Source of the DNA: a plasmid
Length of the DNA stretch: 41,714 nt
Strand: one strand, 5' to 3'
Assembly (NCBI RefSeq): GCF_055900595.2
Contig: NZ_JBVWEU010000004.1
Shown here: piece after piece, positions 1,729 to 41,714 of the stretch
Numbering within the stretch: position 1 is the stretch's first letter
How the letters are laid out: each line of letters opens with the position of its first letter
Made by a program: the position numbers and the translations under genes
Notes under the pieces: generated by a model
Seen by the model: the letters and a program-made list of their open reading frames with translations, nothing else
What the model was told of the DNA's origin: nothing
Database searches by the model: none

Positions 1729-2934
1729 ATGGACAATATTGAGCAGTTACGGAAAGTCGCTACACGTGCAGGTAAGCTTCTGACATCTTTGAGCGAAAGT
1801 ATCCGACAGCAAAAAGAGGAATTGAAGCTTACCGAGTTCTATCAGGAATACAGCAAAGCCGCTCTGTATAAGCTGCCTAAGCTCAGTAAAGGCAGTGTTG
1901 AGTATGCTGTGTCCGAAATGGAAGCCGGTGGCTACATTTTTAAAAAGAAACCTTCTGGTAATACGATGAAATACGCGATGACGATTCAGAATGTCATCGA
2001 TCTGTATAACCATCGTAAAGTACCGAAGTACAGGGATCGCTTCGATAAAGCCTTTACGATTTTTGTATGTAATCTTAAAGGTGGTGGTTCCAAGACAGTT
2101 TCTACCGCTTCATTATCACATGCTTTTCGAGCTCATCCTCAGCTTCTGTTCGAAGACCTGCGTATTCTGGCCATCGATTTCGATCCGCAGGCATCTCTGA
2201 CAATGTTCCTGAGCCATGAGAATTCAGTGGGCTTGGTTGAAAATACGGCTGCTCAGGCCATGCTCCAGAACGTGTCTCGTGAAGAATTACTTTCCGATTT
2301 TATAGTACCGTCTATTATCCCTGGTGTTGATGTAATCCCCGCTTCCATTGACGATGCATTCCTTGCTGAAGGCTGGAAGGGATTGTGTGAAGAACATCTG
2401 CCAGGGAAAAATATTCATGCGGTGCTTAAAGAGAACATTATCGACAAGCTCCAGCATGACTACGACTTTATTTTCCTTGATAGTGGTCCTCACCTTGATG
2501 CGTTCCTGAAAAACTGCATTGGGGCGGCAGACCTGATGTTGACCCCTCTTCCACCGGCGACGGTTGATTTTCATTCTTCCCTGAAGTTTGTGGCCAGCCT
2601 CCCTGCCCTCATAGATTCCATCGAAATGGATGGGCACACCTGCAATCTCATCGGTAATGTCGGCTTCATGTCCAAGATCCTGAACAAGTCTGATCACAAA
2701 ATTTGCCATAGTCAGGCCAAAGAGGTTTTCGGTGCCGATATGCTAGACATGGTTCTGCCAAGACTGGATGGTTTCGAACGTTGTGGGGAGACTTTTGACA
2801 CAGTTATTTCAGCAAATCCAGCAACCTATGATGGAAGTACAGAGGCACTAAAAAGCGCAAAATCAGCAGCGGAAGACTTTGCGAAGGCAGTCTTTGATCG
2901 CATCGAGTTCATTCGTACTAACGGAGGTATGTGA
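1729..2934 (+). CDS. parA: Type Ia partition ATPase ParA/SopA family, 401 aa
   Basis: Deviant Walker A NLKGGGSKT, large N-terminal extension, followed by parB with a TGATG overlap. Confidence 0.9.
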   Translation: MDNIEQLRKVATRAGKLLTSLSESIRQQKEELKLTEFYQEYSKAALYKLPKLSKGSVEYAVSEMEAGGYIFKKKPSGNTMKYAMTIQNVIDLYNHRKVPKYRDRFDKAFTIFVCNLKGGGSKTVSTASLSHAFRAHPQLLFEDLRILAIDFDPQASLTMFLSHENSVGLVENTAAQAMLQNVSREELLSDFIVPSIIPGVDVIPASIDDAFLAEGWKGLCEEHLPGKNIHAVLKENIIDKLQHDYDFIFLDSGPHLDAFLKNCIGAADLMLTPLPPATVDFHSSLKFVASLPALIDSIEMDGHTCNLIGNVGFMSKILNKSDHKICHSQAKEVFGADMLDMVLPRLDGFERCGETFDTVISANPATYDGSTEALKSAKSAAEDFAKAVFDRIEFIRTNGGM

Positions 2935-3908
2935 TGTCGAATGAGAAAAGAAAAACCATCGGCAGACAGTTAAATACCCAGGCGTCAATTGCGGAAATGA
3001 CGGACACCGGTAGAAGCCAGGTATTTACCTTAAAAACCGGCAGGAAGGTAACGTTCAGGTTTGTTCGGGTGCCTGCATCTGAAGTTGAAAGTAAGACCTT
3101 CGTAAACCAGGAAAACAACGGAAGAGATCAACTTGCACTGACCAGGGAATCCCTGAAATCCATTATCCAGACGATTAAGTTTCAGCAGTTCTTTCCCTGT
3201 ATTGGTATTAAGCAAAGTGAAAGGATTGAGATACTGGATGGTTCAAGACGGCGAGCCTCAGCAATTTTTGTCCGTACAGGCCTTGATGTAATGGTTACCG
3301 AAGAGCATTTATCAGCTGATGAAGCTCGCCAACTGGCTAAAGATATCCAGACAGCTAAAGAACATAATCTTCGGGAGATTGGCCTGAGATTGATCGCTCT
3401 TAAAGAGTCCGGATTTAATCAAAAGGAAATTGCTGAACTGGAGGGGTTATCTCAAGCTAAAGTTACCAGGGCGCTGCAGGCGGCGGCCGTACCGCAAGAC
3501 TTGATTTCTCTGTTCCCGGTTCAGTCGGAGCTATCGTTTAGTGACTATAAACTTCTTTTAGAAGTTAATGAAAAACTCAGTGAAAAGGGATTAACGCCTG
3601 AAGAACTCATTCAGTCTGTATCAGCTCAGCTCGATGCAATTTTGAGTGAAGGCGAGCGACCAGAAGACGAACAGAAAGCCAGTATACTGAAGCTGATTTC
3701 TCAGGCATCTCAGGCATTGATAGATCCATCTCCCAAGGAAAAGTCAGTGGTTTCCCCACTCTGGTCTTTTGAAGAAAAGGACAAGTTCGCGCGTAAGCGT
3801 GTGAAAGGGCGTACGCTGACTTATGAGTTTAGCCGTATGTCAAAAGTGATTCAGGATGAACTGGACAAGGCTATCAACGAGGTCCTTGACAGAAATTTGA
3901 GTCAATAA
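2934..3908 (+). CDS. parB: Partition centromere-binding protein ParB/SopB family, about 324 aa
   Basis: ParB-box motif ILDGSRRRAS, HTH region QKEIAELEGLSQAKVTRAL. ATG 2934 overlaps the parA stop (GTG 2931 is an alternative start). Confidence 0.9.
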   Translation: MSNEKRKTIGRQLNTQASIAEMTDTGRSQVFTLKTGRKVTFRFVRVPASEVESKTFVNQENNGRDQLALTRESLKSIIQTIKFQQFFPCIGIKQSERIEILDGSRRRASAIFVRTGLDVMVTEEHLSADEARQLAKDIQTAKEHNLREIGLRLIALKESGFNQKEIAELEGLSQAKVTRALQAAAVPQDLISLFPVQSELSFSDYKLLLEVNEKLSEKGLTPEELIQSVSAQLDAILSEGERPEDEQKASILKLISQASQALIDPSPKEKSVVSPLWSFEEKDKFARKRVKGRTLTYEFSRMSKVIQDELDKAINEVLDRNLSQ

Positions 3909-36974: not shown

Positions 36975-37259
36975 TCAGTCGGGCTCCCTTGCAAAGTACC
37001 GCGCTGCCTTTTTCAGAATATCCCGCTCTTCCTCAGTGCGTTTAAGCTGTGCTTTCAGCCTGAGAATTTCTGTTCTGGCATCCAGTAAATCCTGTGCCTG
37101 CTGTCCACTGTTGTCAGGCTTAACAGCCCGGAGCCATTTATATAGGCTGTGCGCCGACACGCCGAGCCGTTCAGATACTTCAGCAATAGAATAGCCCCGC
37201 TCGGTGATCTGGCGGACGGCCTCTTCCTTAAATTCAGGGGTAAAACGTGATGTGCCCAT
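36975..37259 (-). CDS. IS3-family OrfA (HTH plus leucine zipper), 94 aa
   Basis: FTPEFKEEAVRQITERGYSIAEVSERLGVSAHSLYKWL ... RDILKKAARYFA. Confidence 0.85.
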   Translation of the reverse strand: MGTSRFTPEFKEEAVRQITERGYSIAEVSERLGVSAHSLYKWLRAVKPDNSGQQAQDLLDARTEILRLKAQLKRTEEERDILKKAARYFAREPD

Positions 37260-37277
37260 AGACTCCTCCTATGCTCA

Positions 37278-37357
37278 AACTATAGGGCAGATTTGTCTAC
37301 GGGCTCGGGGTCACTCCAACTATAGGGCAGATTTGTCTACGGGCTCGGGGTCACTCC
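37278..37357. repeat. Exact tandem duplication (2 x 40 bp) of AACTATAGGGCAGATTTGTCTACGGGCTCGGGGTCACTCC, which is the terminal sequence of the IS3-family element
   Basis: 37278-37317 and 37318-37357 are identical. Confidence 0.9.
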
Positions 37358-37358
37358 A

Positions 37359-37399
37359 TTAAGTGATAACAGGTGTCTGGAAATATAGGGGCAAATCCA
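37359..37399 (+). mobile_element. 41-bp IS2-like right-end fragment
   Basis: TTAAGTGATAACAGGTGTCTGGAAATATAGGGGCAAATCCA differs at one position from the recalled IS2 IRR. Confidence 0.7.
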
Positions 37400-37461
37400 G
37401 TCGGGAGGATGCGTGATCTGATCCTTCAACTCAGCAAAAGTTCGATTTATTCAACAAAGCC
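37400..37461 (-). mobile_element. 62-bp IS903 left-end fragment (inverted relative to 9642 and 11717)
   Basis: The reverse complement equals IS903 nt 1-62 with one mismatch. Confidence 0.88.
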
Positions 37462-37502
37462 CATTCATGTCTGTCGTCTCCGTCACGGAAATTATTACGG
37501 GA

Positions 37503-37919
37503 TTATTTCACCCAGTCTTCCAGCACCAGGCCCGGGACCCGCGCAAACTCTCTCACATTGTTCGTCACCAGGATGGCGCCCGCCGCGATGGCGTGCCCGG
37601 CAATGGCCGTGTCATTCGGGCCGATCGGCGTCCCGGCTAGGCGCAGCGCCACCCGGATGTCCGTCGTGGCGTCCACCGCGGCGCGGTCCCAGGGCAGGAC
37701 GGCATCGAGGCGCGCGCAGAACGCGTCGACCAGCTGAATATGGCGCGGCGAGGCCTTCGGGCCGGTGGCGCCGAAGCGCATCTCGGCATATGTCACGGCC
37801 GAGACCACGATGCGATCACCGCGCAGCACCGCCTGCTCCAGGCGCTTCAGCACCGCTGCCGGCTGCTCGCGCATGATGAACGAGCAGATGTTAGTATCGA
37901 GCATCCAGGTTTTCTTCAT
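37503..37919 (-). CDS. vagD: PIN-domain toxin VapC/VagD, 138 aa
   Basis: MLDTNICSF... PIN acidic residues. 4-nt overlap with the upstream antitoxin gene. Confidence 0.9.
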   Translation of the reverse strand: MKKTWMLDTNICSFIMREQPAAVLKRLEQAVLRGDRIVVSAVTYAEMRFGATGPKASPRHIQLVDAFCARLDAVLPWDRAAVDATTDIRVALRLAGTPIGPNDTAIAGHAIAAGAILVTNNVREFARVPGLVLEDWVK

Positions 37920-38146
37920 GGCTCAAAACGTCCTTCATCGCTGACCACATCCTCACGCTCCGCCATAAAGTCCGGATCGGCCCTGTCCAGCTGCGCGAAC
38001 GAGCCCCAGGTCGGCCGGACGGGACGCAGAATGATGCTGTCCCCTTCCCGGACGATCTCCAGCTCGCTGACGCCGTCAAAATCCAGGTCCCGGGGCAGAC
38101 GGATGGCGCGGTTATTGCCGTTTTTAAATATCGAAACTGTGCGCAT
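37916..38146 (-). CDS. vagC: AbrB/SpoVT-fold antitoxin VapB/VagC, 76 aa
   Basis: MRTVSIFKNGNNRAIRLPRDLDFDGVSELEIVREGDSIILRP. Confidence 0.9.
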   Translation of the reverse strand: MRTVSIFKNGNNRAIRLPRDLDFDGVSELEIVREGDSIILRPVRPTWGSFAQLDRADPDFMAEREDVVSDEGRFEP

Positions 38147-38197
38147 GGTTTTTCCTCATATGCTGAGTGTGCCAGGGAGTATTCCCGCATAGGTGAA

Positions 38198-38305
38198 GTA
38201 TATGCCTGCAAGCCCGGCTTGTATAGGTGTTACATATGCAGATGGTAGGTATATGCGTATGCTTTGCCTATGCAGATGCCCGGCATATGGATATGTTACA
38301 CCTAT
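38198..38305. promoter_or_regulatory. Repeat-dense region upstream of vagC: inverted repeat ATAGGTGTTACATAT (38223-38237) / ATATGTTACACCTAT (38291-38305), direct TATGCAGATG x2 (38235, 38269), GTATATGC x2 (38198, 38249)
   Basis: Repeats read directly. A role as a VagC operator is an inference. Confidence 0.4.
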
Positions 38306-38719
38306 GTTGGTTTCTCACTTTTCCCGCTCAGATCCGAAAAAAGGCAGTTCCGGATCTGATTCAGCCCCGCCGGCGCGCAGCGGCCCGGAAACACAAGATG
38401 TAGCGGTGTTTCCAGCTGTCAGTGACCATATATGTTGTGTCCCTCCCCTGCCCCGTGACCGGCCGCTCACCACCCTGAAAGGGCGCTGTGGTTATTCCGT
38501 GTGCGTGGTACACTTCCGGAAACTGTGGAATAACATAAAAGTCGGATCCGGCCAGAGCGGCCGTCAGGTAATTTAATTACGTTGTTATATGGCTGCTTAT
38601 TATTTTAGTATGTGAAAATCACTCTAGTGAAAGTCACTGTCACGACAGAGTGGCACTCATCTGACGATGATTGAGGTGTGGTAAAATTGCACGGCTAACT
38701 ATTCAACTGAGGAAAGGAC

Positions 38720-39070
38720 ATGTTTACTGCATTCAATGAGAGAAATGATTTCAGTTATGCTTTTGAAAAAATCCGTAATGCGATTTCCGCGCCAGGAGAA
38801 AATAATCTTTATGCTGCAACAGAATTAGGTCTTGGCATTCTGCTCCGTAAATACGAGCAGTTTCGCCAGGAACTGGATGCGGCCGGTGAGCTGGGAAACT
38901 GGGAATATGATCTCGATACCTACAATCACTGTATTGCGGTGCTGCAACGTTACTTCACCGGCAATCCATCCGGACTGACAGAACGTGATGCCCGGATTTA
39001 CAGCCATTACCTGCAGACTGAGCACAAAAGGTTTGTGAAACTGGCTGAAGAGCTGGCTGCCGGCCGCTGA
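38720..39070 (+). CDS. Hypothetical protein, 116 aa, soluble and helical
   Basis: RBS GAGGAAAGG before the ATG. First gene of a three-gene same-strand cluster. No motif recognised. Confidence 0.6.
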   Translation: MFTAFNERNDFSYAFEKIRNAISAPGENNLYAATELGLGILLRKYEQFRQELDAAGELGNWEYDLDTYNHCIAVLQRYFTGNPSGLTERDARIYSHYLQTEHKRFVKLAEELAAGR

Positions 39071-39120
39071 CTACGGACAGAGGGCGGGATTTCTCAGGAA
39101 TATAAAGGGGTAAATGATCA

Positions 39121-39864
39121 ATGACTGATATACAGGCCGCAACTGAGAGTATAGTTGCTGCGACATCCCATCCGGTTTCCGTACAGCTGATTAATCAAGG
39201 GGCGGGGATCTGGGGAAACGTGGCAACCGGGCTTATCACTGGCCTGCTTACTGGGGGTATAACACTCACTGGCATCTGGCTGACACATTATTTCACGCTT
39301 AAGCGTGAGAGACAGGCGTCAGAAGATAAAATGAAAAAGGAACTGCATTACATTGCCACCGAGTTGGTATTCATGCTTGAACGGTATGCTGAGGGTTGTT
39401 TCCGGGTTGTGACGGATGACGGCCAGGATGATGATGCCCCCCAGCCTGAGAGAAAAGCTGTCACGAATTACCCTGAACTGAATCTGATCGATGTCTCCGG
39501 TGACTGGCGGACTTTAGAGCCACGTCTTATGTATCGCATCCGTGAACTGCCGGTGCTCCAGGATGAGGCCCACAGGGCAATTGCATATGCCGCCGAATAC
39601 TCCGACCCTCCTTGGCATAAGGACTATTTCAGGGAACGGCAGTATCAGTTCACGCGCTTGGGCATCAACGCTGTCATTCTTGCCGTCCGTCTGCGCAAGG
39701 CAACCGGGATGCCCGAAACACGTCTTACAGGTCATGATGAATGGTCTGCAGTTTCCGTGTTTCGTAAAGTCTGGAGGCGCGAAAGAGCCCTGCGCGCTGC
39801 TGAAGCTACCCGCAACAGGGAGTGGAATCAATTAGTGATACCTGATGGAATGTCAAACCAATGA
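39121..39864 (+). CDS. Hypothetical membrane-anchored protein, 247 aa
   Basis: Gly-rich hydrophobic segment IWGNVATGLITGLLTGGITLTGIWLTHYF near the N-terminus. The stop overlaps the next gene's ATG (ATGA at 39861-39864). Confidence 0.65.
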   Translation: MTDIQAATESIVAATSHPVSVQLINQGAGIWGNVATGLITGLLTGGITLTGIWLTHYFTLKRERQASEDKMKKELHYIATELVFMLERYAEGCFRVVTDDGQDDDAPQPERKAVTNYPELNLIDVSGDWRTLEPRLMYRIRELPVLQDEAHRAIAYAAEYSDPPWHKDYFRERQYQFTRLGINAVILAVRLRKATGMPETRLTGHDEWSAVSVFRKVWRRERALRAAEATRNREWNQLVIPDGMSNQ

Positions 39865-40637
39865 GCGGCCTCTTATCATATTCTCACCCGCAGCAGCCGG
39901 CGCAAATGCCGGTGGCCATTGACTATCCCGCCGCGCTGGCCCTGCGCCAGATGGCGCTCGTTCAAGATGAACTACCGAAATACCTGCTGGCACCGGAAGT
40001 CAGCGCCCTGCTCCATTATGTGCCCGATTTGCACCGCAAGATGCTGCTGGCAACCCTCTGGAACACCGGCGCACGTATCAACGAGGCGCTGGCGCTGACC
40101 CGGGGGGATTTTTCGCTGGTGCCACCGTATCCGTTCGTGCAGCTGGCCACGCTTAAGCAGCGCACCGAAAAAGCGGCCAGGACAGCCGGCCGAGCTCCCG
40201 CCGGTAGCCAGGCTCATCGTCTGGTTCCGCTTTCCGATCACCACTACGTCAGCCAGCTGCAGATGATGGTGGCCACCCTGAAAATTCCGCTGGAAAGACG
40301 CAACAAGCGTACCGGCAGAACAGAGAAAGCCCGCATCTGGGACATCACCGACCGGACAGTACGGACCTGGATTGGCGAAGCGGTTGAAGCGGCCGCCGTC
40401 GACGGGGTGACATTCTCGGTGCCGGTCACCCCGCATACGTTCCGCCACTCCTACGCGATGCATATGCTGTATGCCGGCATACCACTGAAGGTTTTGCAGA
40501 GCCTGATGGGCCACAAATCGATTAGCTCGACGGAAGTCTATACGAAGGTGTTCGCACTTGATGTTGCTGCGCGGCATCGAGTTCAGTTTCAGATGCCCGA
40601 AGCGGATGCGGTAGCCATGCTGAAAGGGAATATTTAA
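39861..40637 (+). CDS. resD: Tyrosine site-specific recombinase (plasmid ResD-like resolvase/integrase), 258 aa
   Basis: Catalytic signature TGARINEAL (R), HTFRHSYA (HxxR), LMGHKSISSTEVYT (H...Y). Confidence 0.85.
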   Translation: MSGLLSYSHPQQPAQMPVAIDYPAALALRQMALVQDELPKYLLAPEVSALLHYVPDLHRKMLLATLWNTGARINEALALTRGDFSLVPPYPFVQLATLKQRTEKAARTAGRAPAGSQAHRLVPLSDHHYVSQLQMMVATLKIPLERRNKRTGRTEKARIWDITDRTVRTWIGEAVEAAAVDGVTFSVPVTPHTFRHSYAMHMLYAGIPLKVLQSLMGHKSISSTEVYTKVFALDVAARHRVQFQMPEADAVAMLKGNI

Positions 40638-40694
40638 GTACTTAGGAGAATGATGCTGGCGAACGTCCTGCTCGCCGGGGAGGTCTGTCAGACG

Positions 40695-40952
40695 TTATCT
40701 GGACCAGCTGACGGGAATATCTGCTCTGTATTCTTCATACTGCTCATAGATCGCATGCTGAAGCATCGTAATACGTTCTGACAACCTGTTGGCGTCCGAC
40801 ATATGCCGCCATTCCCCCTCAATAGTGGTTTTCTGTCCATCCGGGAGATTGAGCGTGATCAATACCTTTGTATCACGAATAATCACCCCGTCAGTGAAAG
40901 AATTAAGACCACTCCTTACGGTATTATCTATCTGTATAGTTTCAAGTTTCAT
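40695..40952 (-). CDS. Hypothetical protein, 85 aa from ATG 40952
   Basis: Strong RBS AGGAGGT 7 nt upstream of MKLETIQ. The track start at 40985 lacks an RBS. Confidence 0.6.
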   Translation of the reverse strand: MKLETIQIDNTVRSGLNSFTDGVIIRDTKVLITLNLPDGQKTTIEGEWRHMSDANRLSERITMLQHAIYEQYEEYRADIPVSWSR

Positions 40953-41080
40953 CTTGTTACCTCCTGTTGACCGGATCCCAAGCATAGATATCTGAATTCA
41001 AATTGCCTAGTGAAATGTCTGGATATGCCGCATTTTTCCCCTTATACAGCGAAGCTGGCCAAAGGCCAGCCCGCTTGGAT

Positions 41081-41167
41081 TTATCGCTTTTGCCAGTAAA
41101 TCAGCATGGCAAGGAACAGGATTGTTGCCCCCTGAGAAGCGGTCAGGAAAGTTTCCAGCAATGACAT
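41081..41167 (-). CDS. Possible 28-aa hydrophobic peptide MSLLETFLTASQGATILFLAMLIYWQKR
   Basis: ATG preceded by GCGGAG. A TM-like core with a KR tail. Followed by the hairpin GCTGGCC-AAA-GGCCAGC (41054-41070). Below the ORF-track size cutoff. Confidence 0.3.
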   Translation of the reverse strand: MSLLETFLTASQGATILFLAMLIYWQKR

Positions 41168-41384
41168 TATCGTAAAACTCCGCATTATTCAGGTGTGTGA
41201 TTCAGGGGCCTTAGTCCCCCTTTTACAGGACGTAGTGTTCTGTCACGACGGAAGCCAGGGTTAATAAAAACGATTCGAATATGTCTGCAGGGACGATAGA
41301 AATCTTCGTGCGGGTTGTCTCGCTGTAGCCGGCTCTGGAGAGCGACTCGGGGGAGGAGTAGTATCTTCCGGCCACGGATATGAT

Positions 41385-41447
41385 CGAGCCAGCAGTGCTC
41401 GCCGCAGTCGAGCGACAGGGCGAAGCCCCGAGTGAGCGAGGAAGCAC
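41385..41447 (-). other. Second primosome-assembly-site-like element, inverted relative to 1388-1452
   Basis: The minus strand reads GTGCTTCCTCGCTCACTCGGGGCTTCGCCCTGTCGCTCGACTGCGGCGAGCAC. It shares GCTTCCTCGC and CTGCGGCGAGC blocks, at the same spacing, with 1397-1446. Confidence 0.45.
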
Positions 41448-41510
41448 CAGGGAACAAAACTTATAAATTCTGCTTACGCTCAATGCCTGAAAAATCACCT
41501 CCCCTCGGGG

Positions 41511-41527
41511 TTATCCACTTATCCACG
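41511..41527 (+). promoter_or_regulatory. Two overlapping DnaA boxes, TTATCCACT (41511-41519) and TTATCCACG (41519-41527)
   Basis: 8/9 matches to TTATCCACA, immediately before an AT-rich tract. Confidence 0.6.
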
Positions 41528-41530
41528 GGC

Positions 41531-41580
41531 ATATTTTTATAAAGTACTTTTTTATTCTTTTTCTTTATTTTACATCTTTT
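41531..41580. other. AT-rich putative DNA-unwinding region of oriV
   Basis: ATATTTTTATAAAGTACTTTTTTATTCTTTTTCTTTATTTTACATCTTTT lies between the DnaA boxes and the iterons. Confidence 0.55.
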
Positions 41581-41625
41581 AGGGAGCCTGAAAGCCGCGT
41601 ACAGTGCGGCCTGAGAGGGGGCCTG

Positions 41626-41714
41626 TATGGGCAACTGGTAAACATAATATGGGAAATTAATCACGTATCAGTGGGTTTTGTGTCAACAAGCTATGGGATA
41701 TGCATCAACAAGCT
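41626..41714 (+). repeat. Origin iterons: TATGGG-type units at exact 22-bp phasing (41626, 41648, 41670, 41692), with a fifth starting at 41714 and completed by window nt 1-21
   Basis: The unit core TATGGGAAAcAGGTCAAC is the reverse complement of the 36-bp-array core. The copy spanning the window ends matches it 16/18. Confidence 0.7.

Follow-up and report, generated by a model that had tools for sequence, protein, structure and literature searches.

The closest described relative of the locus analyzed here is the rfsF/ccdA-ccdB-resD arrangement in the RepFIA maintenance region of the F plasmid. Our subject is a set of three co-oriented genes, designated orf116, orf247 and resD, at the right end of a 41.7-kb plasmid stretch (41,714 nucleotides, contig NZ_JBVWEU010000004.1), which is referred to as the window. 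F carries the order rfsF, oriV-1, ccdAB, resD (PMC4398462), with pifC on the minus strand beyond rfsF and with ccdB abutting resD. The 28-bp replicon fusion site rfsF, with the pattern AGATCCGNAANNNNNNNNTTNCGGATCT, is the target of the tyrosine recombinase ResD; F-derived plasmids recombine at rfsF in experiments, in vivo multimer resolution and replicon fusion at this site being known for F and pOX38, and ResD/rfsF mediates plasmid fusions that mobilize virulence plasmids (PMC8299605). The site has also been reported as a switch point for gene sets (PMC8004404). A second described system is the IncR backbone of vagCD, rfsF-resD and repB (PMC9412624; PMC12310702), in which pST1023 and others show the order vagD-vagC, rfsF, resD and repB side, the same as in the window; these descriptions name rfsF-resD only, without the two genes between. 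The third is PDC-S67, a PADLOC family (Payne et al. 2024 preprint). Guilt-by-embedding within BREX, DISARM or type I restriction-modification loci is the basis on which PDC families were drawn up, and by the authors' own statement all 145 PDC systems are candidates awaiting assay (bioRxiv 10.1101/2024.01.29.577857).

Comparison with these systems indicates that what lies between rfsF and resD is modular: a cargo slot that holds differing gene sets in different plasmids, with orf116 and orf247 as one such load. Our preferred reading, to which we assign a probability of roughly 55%, is that the locus is an rfsF/ResD multimer-resolution and replicon-fusion module of an IncR/IncF-type plasmid whose slot carries cargo of the conflict or maintenance type. 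The architecture, including the slot itself, is very probable; a defence or addiction function for the cargo is put forward tentatively. The features on which the comparison depends are given below, in window positions, as are all coordinates that do not follow a locus label (L0xx).

38720-39070, plus strand: orf116, an open reading frame (ORF) for a predicted small soluble protein with an up-down four-helix bundle; one of several interchangeable leader genes of the slot.
39121-39864, plus strand: orf247, an ORF for a predicted single-pass inner-membrane protein; PDC-S67 member.
39861-40637, plus strand: resD, encoding a 258-amino-acid (aa) tyrosine recombinase; orthologue of F ResD (D protein).
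38330-38357, plus strand: rfsF, 28 bp, AGATCCGAAAAAAGGCAGTTCCGGATCT; two 10-bp inverted arms and an 8-bp spacer.
38358-38603, no strand: conserved non-coding block between rfsF and the variable cassette.

An earlier examination of the letters and ORFs alone (hereafter the sequence-only reading) had described the recombinase as ResD-like with an intact R...HxxR...H...Y signature, and this was confirmed. The catalytic residues are R72, H192-x-x-R195, H218 and Y227, Pfam Phage_integrase (PF00589) matches residues 41-230 (E=2.3e-18), and residues 11-255 are ∼91% identical to F ResD (WP_000016982). Against the XerD model, the alignment covers residues 32-232 and model positions 104-285, and ∼40 residues precede the catalytic domain; because the alignment begins only at model position 104, ResD has no N-terminal core-binding domain of the Xer type. 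The first 15 codons are part of the variable cassette. The same reading did not mention rfsF, which matches the published pattern with 0 mismatches and is the sole site in the window at up to 3 mismatches (0 in 100 shuffles). It lies 390 bp upstream of orf116, and the F site lies ∼390 bp upstream of the first gene there. Among the ResD-bearing loci of the set L001-L028, 20 of 23 have a site resembling rfsF (0-3 mismatches) at an equivalent position, ∼710-1160 bp before the orf247 relative. ResD relatives were found by tblastn in > 5000 plasmid records, with > 5000 at at least 80% identity among the matches listed. From sequence likeness, then, the window's recombinase is the F ResD orthologue with its cognate rfsF in cis, and multimer resolution and replicon fusion are predicted by analogy with F.

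The contents of the slot vary from plasmid to plasmid. The F cargo is CcdA and CcdB, whereas orf116 and orf247 have no sequence or fold similarity to the Ccd proteins and, unlike that pair, do not co-vary. At the same pifC-side backbone position as in F, a ColBM-type IncFIB plasmid carries rfsF, an orf116 relative, a 229-aa orf247 relative and resD. The slot of an IncR plasmid holds ccdA, ccdB and a 227-aa orf247 relative, that of a Klebsiella IncFIA/FII plasmid a 111-aa gene and a 223-aa orf247 relative, and that of another plasmid ccdAB plus three further genes. In the commonest Klebsiella ResD class among the matches listed (3329 records at 90-95% identity), resD is preceded by four unrelated genes for hypothetical proteins of 130, 173, 67 and 334 aa. 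The runs of hypothetical genes that represent this class, at L042 63-2317 and L043 539-2303, end in a 334-338-aa protein, with or without ccdAB. Two Klebsiella IncFIB/FII loci (L040 and L041) have rfsF, an orf116 relative and an unrelated 177-aa soluble protein (2902-3435 and 2903-3436, respectively) in place of orf247; resD is absent from both, and farther along the opposite strand carries a gene with an EAL domain. No Pfam or PADLOC family was matched by the L042/L043 cargo, by the other alternative cargo proteins or by the family-B proteins described below. The last slot gene usually abuts or overlaps the resD start codon, as it does both in F and in the window.

The edges of the slot were located by blastn against differently loaded plasmids. 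Homology ends abruptly at 38603/38604 (left edge) and at 39907-39909 (right edge); the latter corresponds to resD codon 16, and homology to four other plasmids starts there. A third breakpoint lies at ∼39114, just before orf247. Left of rfsF the plasmids differ again, with homology to L001 starting exactly at 38330, and the breakpoints at rfsF agree with the published reports of this site as a switch point (PMC8004404). From 39907 to 41714 the window is 96.7% identical to an IncR plasmid, up to the rep gene of the latter. The non-coding block at 38358-38603 is shared at 70-82% with many loci whose downstream cassettes differ, and these blastn matches have a common right edge at 38603. In F, the oriV-1 region stands at this position, and only 38503-38549 is common to the two.

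Those 47 bp are 81% identical to 46095-46141 of the F record, in its oriV-1 region, and hold a DnaA-box-like TGTGGAATA identified by eye. The IncFIA/FII/N plasmid of locus L001 (NZ_CP032991) carries the identical three-gene block; left of its rfsF is not the vapBC-proximal backbone. Instead, a cluster at L001 1651-7461 adjoins rfsF and encodes an AAA ATPase, two hypothetical proteins, an S-4TM pore-forming effector and a further hypothetical protein; it looks like a defence-type cassette.

To compare linkage with independent assortment, we used an orf247 profile scan of one genome per species, which gave 24 loci. In 19 of these, resD lies downstream of the orf247 relative in the same orientation, immediately so in 17 of the 19, with orf247 identities down to 39-56% and ResD identities of 78-94%. 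The 4-nt stop/start overlap between the two genes is present in 12 of 20 loci. The companion genes are less constant. In L026, orf116 is 97% identical to that of the window and the orf247 relative 35%; the corresponding values are 88% and 45% in L015, and 54% and 46% in L013. L037 has an orf247 allele 86-87% identical to the window's, preceded by a small gene of family B, and L027 has ccdAB and an orf247 relative without a small gene. By tblastn, orf247 relatives occur in 1990 plasmid records with a bimodal distribution of identities (942 at at least 95%, 7 at 60-95% and 1041 below 60%), and orf116 relatives occur in 1607, of which 1563 are at least 80% identical. Median pairwise identity across 16 loci is 45.6% for orf247 and 83.5% for ResD, and the two are uncorrelated (r=0.17).

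Substitution rates were estimated by the NG86 method. Ratios of nonsynonymous to synonymous rates (dN/dS) of 0.12-0.32 for orf247 and 0.09-0.13 for ResD indicate purifying selection, and all three ORFs are real genes. The window and L037 differ by a dS of 0.26 in orf247 and of 0.96 in the adjoining resD, and mosaicism of the locus is therefore shown directly. Between L020 and L022, which have equal dS, amino-acid changes accumulated ∼2.6 times faster in orf247 than in ResD. The deep divergence of orf247 alleles, as read from these sequence comparisons, reflects old allelic classes shuffled by recombination together with the ∼2.6-fold faster protein rate. An arms-race signature was also considered and was rejected, as dN/dS stays below 0.35 and there is no gene-wide positive selection. 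The parts of the slot are exchanged independently of one another, which runs counter to the initial view of the three genes as one dedicated unit. Decayed copies of the module are also seen. In Rahnella (L011, 5950-6678) the orf247 relative is broken into two ORFs, and in an unclassified member of the Enterobacterales (L018, 6774-7525) resD is split into two ORFs and orf116 is cut to its last 43 codons.

The orf247 product matched no Pfam or NCBIfam family above threshold and was assigned to phrog_33426 (function unknown). Its residues 47-236 match positions 6-195 of the 203 positions of the PADLOC PDC-S67 profile with E=3.6e-45. Relatives of orf247 are found in defence-rich mobile islands; the window's gene, in contrast to the setting that defines PDC families, lies inside a plasmid multimer-resolution operon rather than in BREX, DISARM or type I restriction-modification loci. 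A literature search returned no mention of PDC-S67 by name or of the RefSeq accessions, and no description of PDC-S67 in a resD-operon context was found. The label is a lead, not a function.

In the AlphaFold2 model of orf247 (mean predicted local distance difference test score, pLDDT, 82), the N-terminal 30 residues are disordered and are followed by a long helix that begins with a transmembrane (TM) segment; a short hairpin and three more helices complete a four-helix bundle. The TM helix (residues ∼32-55) is rich in glycine and has the motif G37xxxG41xxxG45. The charge distribution predicts an N-out/C-in topology, which would leave a short tail in the periplasm and place the charged C-terminal domain of ∼190 residues in the cytoplasm. 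One glycine-rich anchor and a charged C-terminal domain had been recognized from the letters alone, and the model agrees. Fold searches returned generic helical bundles only. A profile search of 1.84 billion representatives gave 949 clusters for the family (598 at E≤1e-10), all of ∼200-250 aa with the same layout and no domain fusions. Among 123 representatives, 94% have an N-terminal TM helix; glycine makes up 14.7% and glycine, alanine and serine together 36% of its residues, and GxxxG occurs in 56%. This glycine content is about twice that usual for TM helices. By its zipper pattern, the modeled helix likely self-associates. The N-terminal 73 residues gave a weak, non-significant match to the holin family phrog_4237 (E=0.013). 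Like holins and glycine-zipper proteins, orf247 is short and has a TM helix rich in small residues (GxxxGxxxG). Unlike holins, it has a single TM helix with a 190-residue cytoplasmic helical domain and is encoded in a plasmid maintenance context outside any lysis cassette; neither a significant holin family match nor a lysis-cassette position was found.

The orf116 product likewise matched nothing above threshold in Pfam or NCBIfam and nothing in PADLOC, and was assigned to phrog_36524 (function unknown). Neither upstream protein had been placed in a family by the sequence-only reading, and that judgment held for curated families. We found 105 homologues of orf116, all enterobacterial. Its predicted fold is a small four-helix bundle. 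In most loci its position is taken by family B, a second, loosely related and highly divergent family of 95-111-aa proteins with motifs resembling L(I/F)xxLxxxGHxxVW and G..(L/V)A(R/K)...GW, which was linked by transitive BLASTP only. Family-B genes lie at L007 5596-5931, L008 5650-5955, L012 5652-5972, L016 5599-5928, L020 5580-5906, L022 5612-5908, L037 3670-3957 and L038 3630-3956. We infer that orf116, a small protein of the cytoplasm that other leaders can replace, serves as a modulator or as cargo in its own right, rather than as a partner cognate to orf247.

Outside the plasmid clade, relatives of orf247 occur in several settings. Those of Stenotrophomonas (27-31% identity) are solitary chromosomal genes. 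One type of enterobacterial chromosomal island has an orf247 relative with Cap4 nuclease, MComp1, CTD1, EcoRII-C and SMC-type ATPases, and a second type has one with Mrr and caspase genes and a decayed resD. More distant members are found at a prophage moron position between head and tail genes, adjoining a DUF4160/DUF2442 pair, in an integrative mobilizable element two genes from a tyrosine recombinase (Dyella, L046), at an unremarkable chromosomal site, in the cargo of a Tn7-like element next to genes for a protein kinase, HEPN_AbiV and PRTase-CE/ORC-CDC6-like proteins, and at the edge of an integrase-bounded island. When 60 neighbors, including the five L001 genes left of rfsF, were compared with PADLOC, PD-T4-6 kinase, mad3, mad6, AriA, PtuA and others were matched; these are raw matches without a background rate, and the members that matched were not itemized. 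From the 949 clusters without fusions and the solitary copies in Stenotrophomonas and diverse bacteria, orf247 appears autonomous. It is a member of a large family of predicted single-pass membrane proteins and, judging from this distribution, probably not a ResD cofactor. A phage origin was rejected: the family is near absent from phage genomes (3 of 50,697 records), and one IMG/VR contig is the identical plasmid block. In the Dyella metagenome contig (L046 6127-7366), a 162-aa ORF with a faint Phage_int_SAM_4 match overlaps a 252-aa Phage_integrase ORF, two genes upstream of the distant orf247 member, in an element that carries MobA. This split recombinase could be a frameshift or a genuine split.

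Further features lie to the left of orf116:

38679-38687, plus strand: putative extended -10, TGgTAAAAT, read from the sequence, for an orf116-orf247-resD transcript.
38612-38638, plus strand: two direct copies of a small palindrome, GTGAAAATCACT and GTGAAAGTCACT, just upstream of the promoter (repeat search).
37503-38146, minus strand: VapBC (PIN and MazE-type antitoxin), the adjacent toxin-antitoxin (TA) system.

The ORF list and direct reading bore out the three ORFs, the 50-bp gap between orf116 and orf247, the ATGA overlap of the orf247 stop and the resD start at 39861-39864, and the extended -10 (TGGTAAAAT at 38679-38687). The recombinase is thus not solitary and is tightly coupled in spacing to the gene upstream, and a TA system does lie beside the operon, all as first described. 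Shine-Dalgarno-like motifs are visible in the sequence. The -10, ribosome binding site and start codon are kept in two diverged plasmids, L026 and L015, with an identical -10 in both. A generic two-hexamer scan did not list this promoter, whose -35 is weak, and a terminator scan found no terminator-like site between the three genes on the plus strand.

According to the preferred reading, one promoter would drive orf116, orf247 and resD, and ResD translation would re-initiate at the ATGA overlap, so that the cargo would be expressed whenever the resolution function is. The role of orf247 may be analogous to that of the ccdAB cargo of F, an analogy that does not extend to sequence. With low confidence, we propose a conflict or maintenance role for orf247, as an effector of abortive infection, exclusion or addiction, because of the PDC-S67 match, the defence-rich neighborhoods, the glycine-rich helix and the weak holin match. 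The cytoplasmic bundle might sense a trigger, and the zipper helix might then oligomerize and perturb the inner membrane. A more far-reaching version, which we regard as speculative and somewhat less likely again than the functional proposal itself, would make the slot a dedicated plug-in on thousands of enterobacterial resistance and virulence plasmids, any insert being co-expressed with the dimer resolvase and the contents being shuffled by rfsF-mediated replicon fusion and flanking homology. The commonest non-Ccd occupant found, orf247, would there be a new single-protein, membrane-anchored effector of abortive infection or plasmid competition that works by zipper oligomerization and is tuned or triggered by orf116 or family B.

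Several observations weigh against the preferred reading. PDC families are guilt-by-embedding candidates, and the embedding signal, and with it the PDC-S67 label, could stem from the insertion of a small, mobile rfsF-resD module into a defence locus. Plasmids accumulate defence genes beside rfsF, a known swap point (PMC8004404), and because rfsF itself gathers such genes the neighborhood evidence is confounded; the PADLOC neighbor matches (n=60) also stand without a control base rate. Fold searches, with generic helical bundles only, lend no structural support to the mechanism. dN/dS is below 1, with no gene-wide arms-race signature. Among the Enterobacterales, members of the orf247 family occur hardly anywhere but just upstream of resD (19/24 loci), and this persistent linkage could reflect a functional tie to ResD. 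Finally, co-transcription and translational coupling are read from spacing only. The exclusion or defence module proposed by the sequence-only reading is thus consistent with the PDC-S67 match and with the defence-rich islands of several relatives and is unproven, PDC-S67 being a candidate.

Owing to the Enterobacterales linkage, only one rival keeps real weight: orf247, possibly with the small protein, as a non-essential accessory or regulator of ResD that tethers or times rfsF recombination at the inner membrane or biases resolution versus fusion. The downstream position of resD (19 of 24 loci, 17 immediately) despite orf247 identities of 39-56%, and the overlap kept in 12 of 20 loci, speak for it; outside help is conceivable for a ResD without a Xer-type core-binding domain, and the Dyella member lies two genes from a tyrosine recombinase. 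F, however, lacks orf247: ccdAB comes immediately before its resD, the product of which is 91% identical, and rfsF recombination is seen in F-derived plasmids (PMC8299605). ResD (at least 80% identity) occurs in > 5000 plasmids versus 1990 for orf247 relatives of any degree, resD follows unrelated genes in the commonest Klebsiella class, distant orf247 members have no recombinase nearby, and orf247 and ResD divergences are uncorrelated (r=0.17). We therefore judge this optional modulator to be improbable. The role of accessory factors for multimer resolution, which the sequence-only reading named for the upstream genes, is disfavored as an obligatory one by F ResD with ccdAB and neither orf116 nor orf247, by the commonest Klebsiella class and by the recombinase-free distant relatives.

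A second rival makes orf116 and orf247 a TA-like addiction pair that replaces ccdAB, with a membrane toxin (orf247), a cytoplasmic antidote (orf116) and post-segregational killing tied to dimer resolution. The backbone position is that of F ccdAB (pifC on the minus strand, rfsF, pair, resD), the small gene comes before the larger membrane-protein gene, and the glycine-zipper helix and weak holin-like match would suit a toxin. Against this, near-identical orf116 genes occur with a 35% orf247 allele or with the unrelated 177-aa protein, a near-identical orf247 allele occurs with a family-B gene, an orf247 relative follows ccdAB without a small gene, and solitary orf247 relatives exist; neither protein resembles a known toxin or antitoxin family or fold, and PADLOC lists PDC-S67 as a single-gene candidate. 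A cognate TA pair was rejected on the free assortment, and the addiction-pair idea as a whole is unlikely. Still less can be said for a split recombinase in which orf116 supplies in trans the missing SAM-like N-terminal core-binding domain of ResD. A sub-threshold Pfam Phage_int_SAM_4 signal was seen in 16 of 35 close orf116 relatives (best E=4.4e-4), only ∼40 ResD residues precede the catalytic domain, and orf116 is a four-helix protein of about the right size. An hhalign comparison of orf116 with the SAM-like N-terminus of the window's own integron integrase, however, gave a probability of 0.08, a PDB profile search with orf116 returned no recombinase, and neither a Phage_int_SAM match above the gathering threshold nor a profile or fold match to a recombinase N-domain was obtained. 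This very unlikely arrangement was rejected on the hhalign value and the recombinase-free profile search. The least probable of the alternatives is a recombinase-controlled invertible or excisable switch that toggles the membrane protein, another role named by the sequence-only reading. A tyrosine recombinase adjoins a promoter-proximal gene pair, and nothing else favors it: the 41.7 kb contain one rfsF-like site at up to 3 mismatches, the repeat search gave no inverted repeat pair flanking the promoter or the genes, and rfsF, cargo and resD have the same orientation in all loci examined. A switch of the Fim or shufflon type needs two inverted sites, and it was rejected on the single rfsF and the absence of an invertible segment.

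The rfsF/ResD module with slot cargo, as we prefer to read the locus, is not a new kind of system, and its cargo function is inferred. ResD, rfsF and the orf247 family as a PDC-S67 candidate were already known; the location of both genes inside an rfsF-resD operon, the view of the slot as modular and the account of the family's predicted structure and topology are new. Of the IncF, IncR and Klebsiella virulence plasmids of clinical importance, a very large proportion carry a ResD/rfsF module. The 2.1-kb block is at least 99% identical in 866 plasmid records from Klebsiella, Escherichia, Salmonella, Shigella, Enterobacter and others, and orf247 relatives are carried by ∼2000, yet every annotation source names the orf116 and orf247 proteins hypothetical (the RefSeq labels for the block are hypothetical, hypothetical and site-specific integrase). 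Should orf247 prove to act in defence, exclusion or addiction, plasmid persistence or phage resistance in Klebsiella and E. coli would have a widespread and easily assayed determinant, and this would be the first functional assignment for a family of 949 clusters. Should it modulate ResD instead, it would bear on the formation of hybrid resistance-virulence plasmids. Recognition of the modular rfsF-resD slot should improve plasmid annotation and the interpretation of mosaicism.

Additional features were noted around the operon. In L026 and L015 the second copy of the palindrome pair at 38612-38638 is conserved and the first in part, whereas the diverged Hafnia cassette has kept neither. These GTGA-N3-TCAC repeats are a possible operator, conserved among close cassettes only. 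Between vapB and rfsF, the segment at 38187-38305 is rich in repeats: a 19-nt direct repeat present three times (GCATAGGTGAAGTATATGC-like), a tandem pair of 34 nt, and an imperfect inverted repeat of 40 nt whose arms are 75% complementary and 3 nt apart. The segment may be the vapBC operator/promoter or hold iteron-like sites. Further out, left of VapBC, are a group II intron reverse transcriptase and IS26. An Rfam scan of 37000-41714 gave no match. Just downstream of resD, a convergent small gene (40695-40985, minus strand) is a 96-aa ORF annotated by RefSeq as 85 aa (WP_000764642); it matches phrog_31850 (function unknown) and no Pfam or PADLOC family, and is 100% conserved in IncR and IncF plasmids. 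The rfsF-orf116-orf247-resD block was also found on a 2183-bp contig of Haemophilus sputorum CCUG 13788 (L002, NZ_AFNK01000058.1), with 100% identical proteins and 99.4% identity to the enterobacterial block in the DNA upstream of the genes. This is more likely to be assembly contamination than a genuine Pasteurellaceae plasmid.

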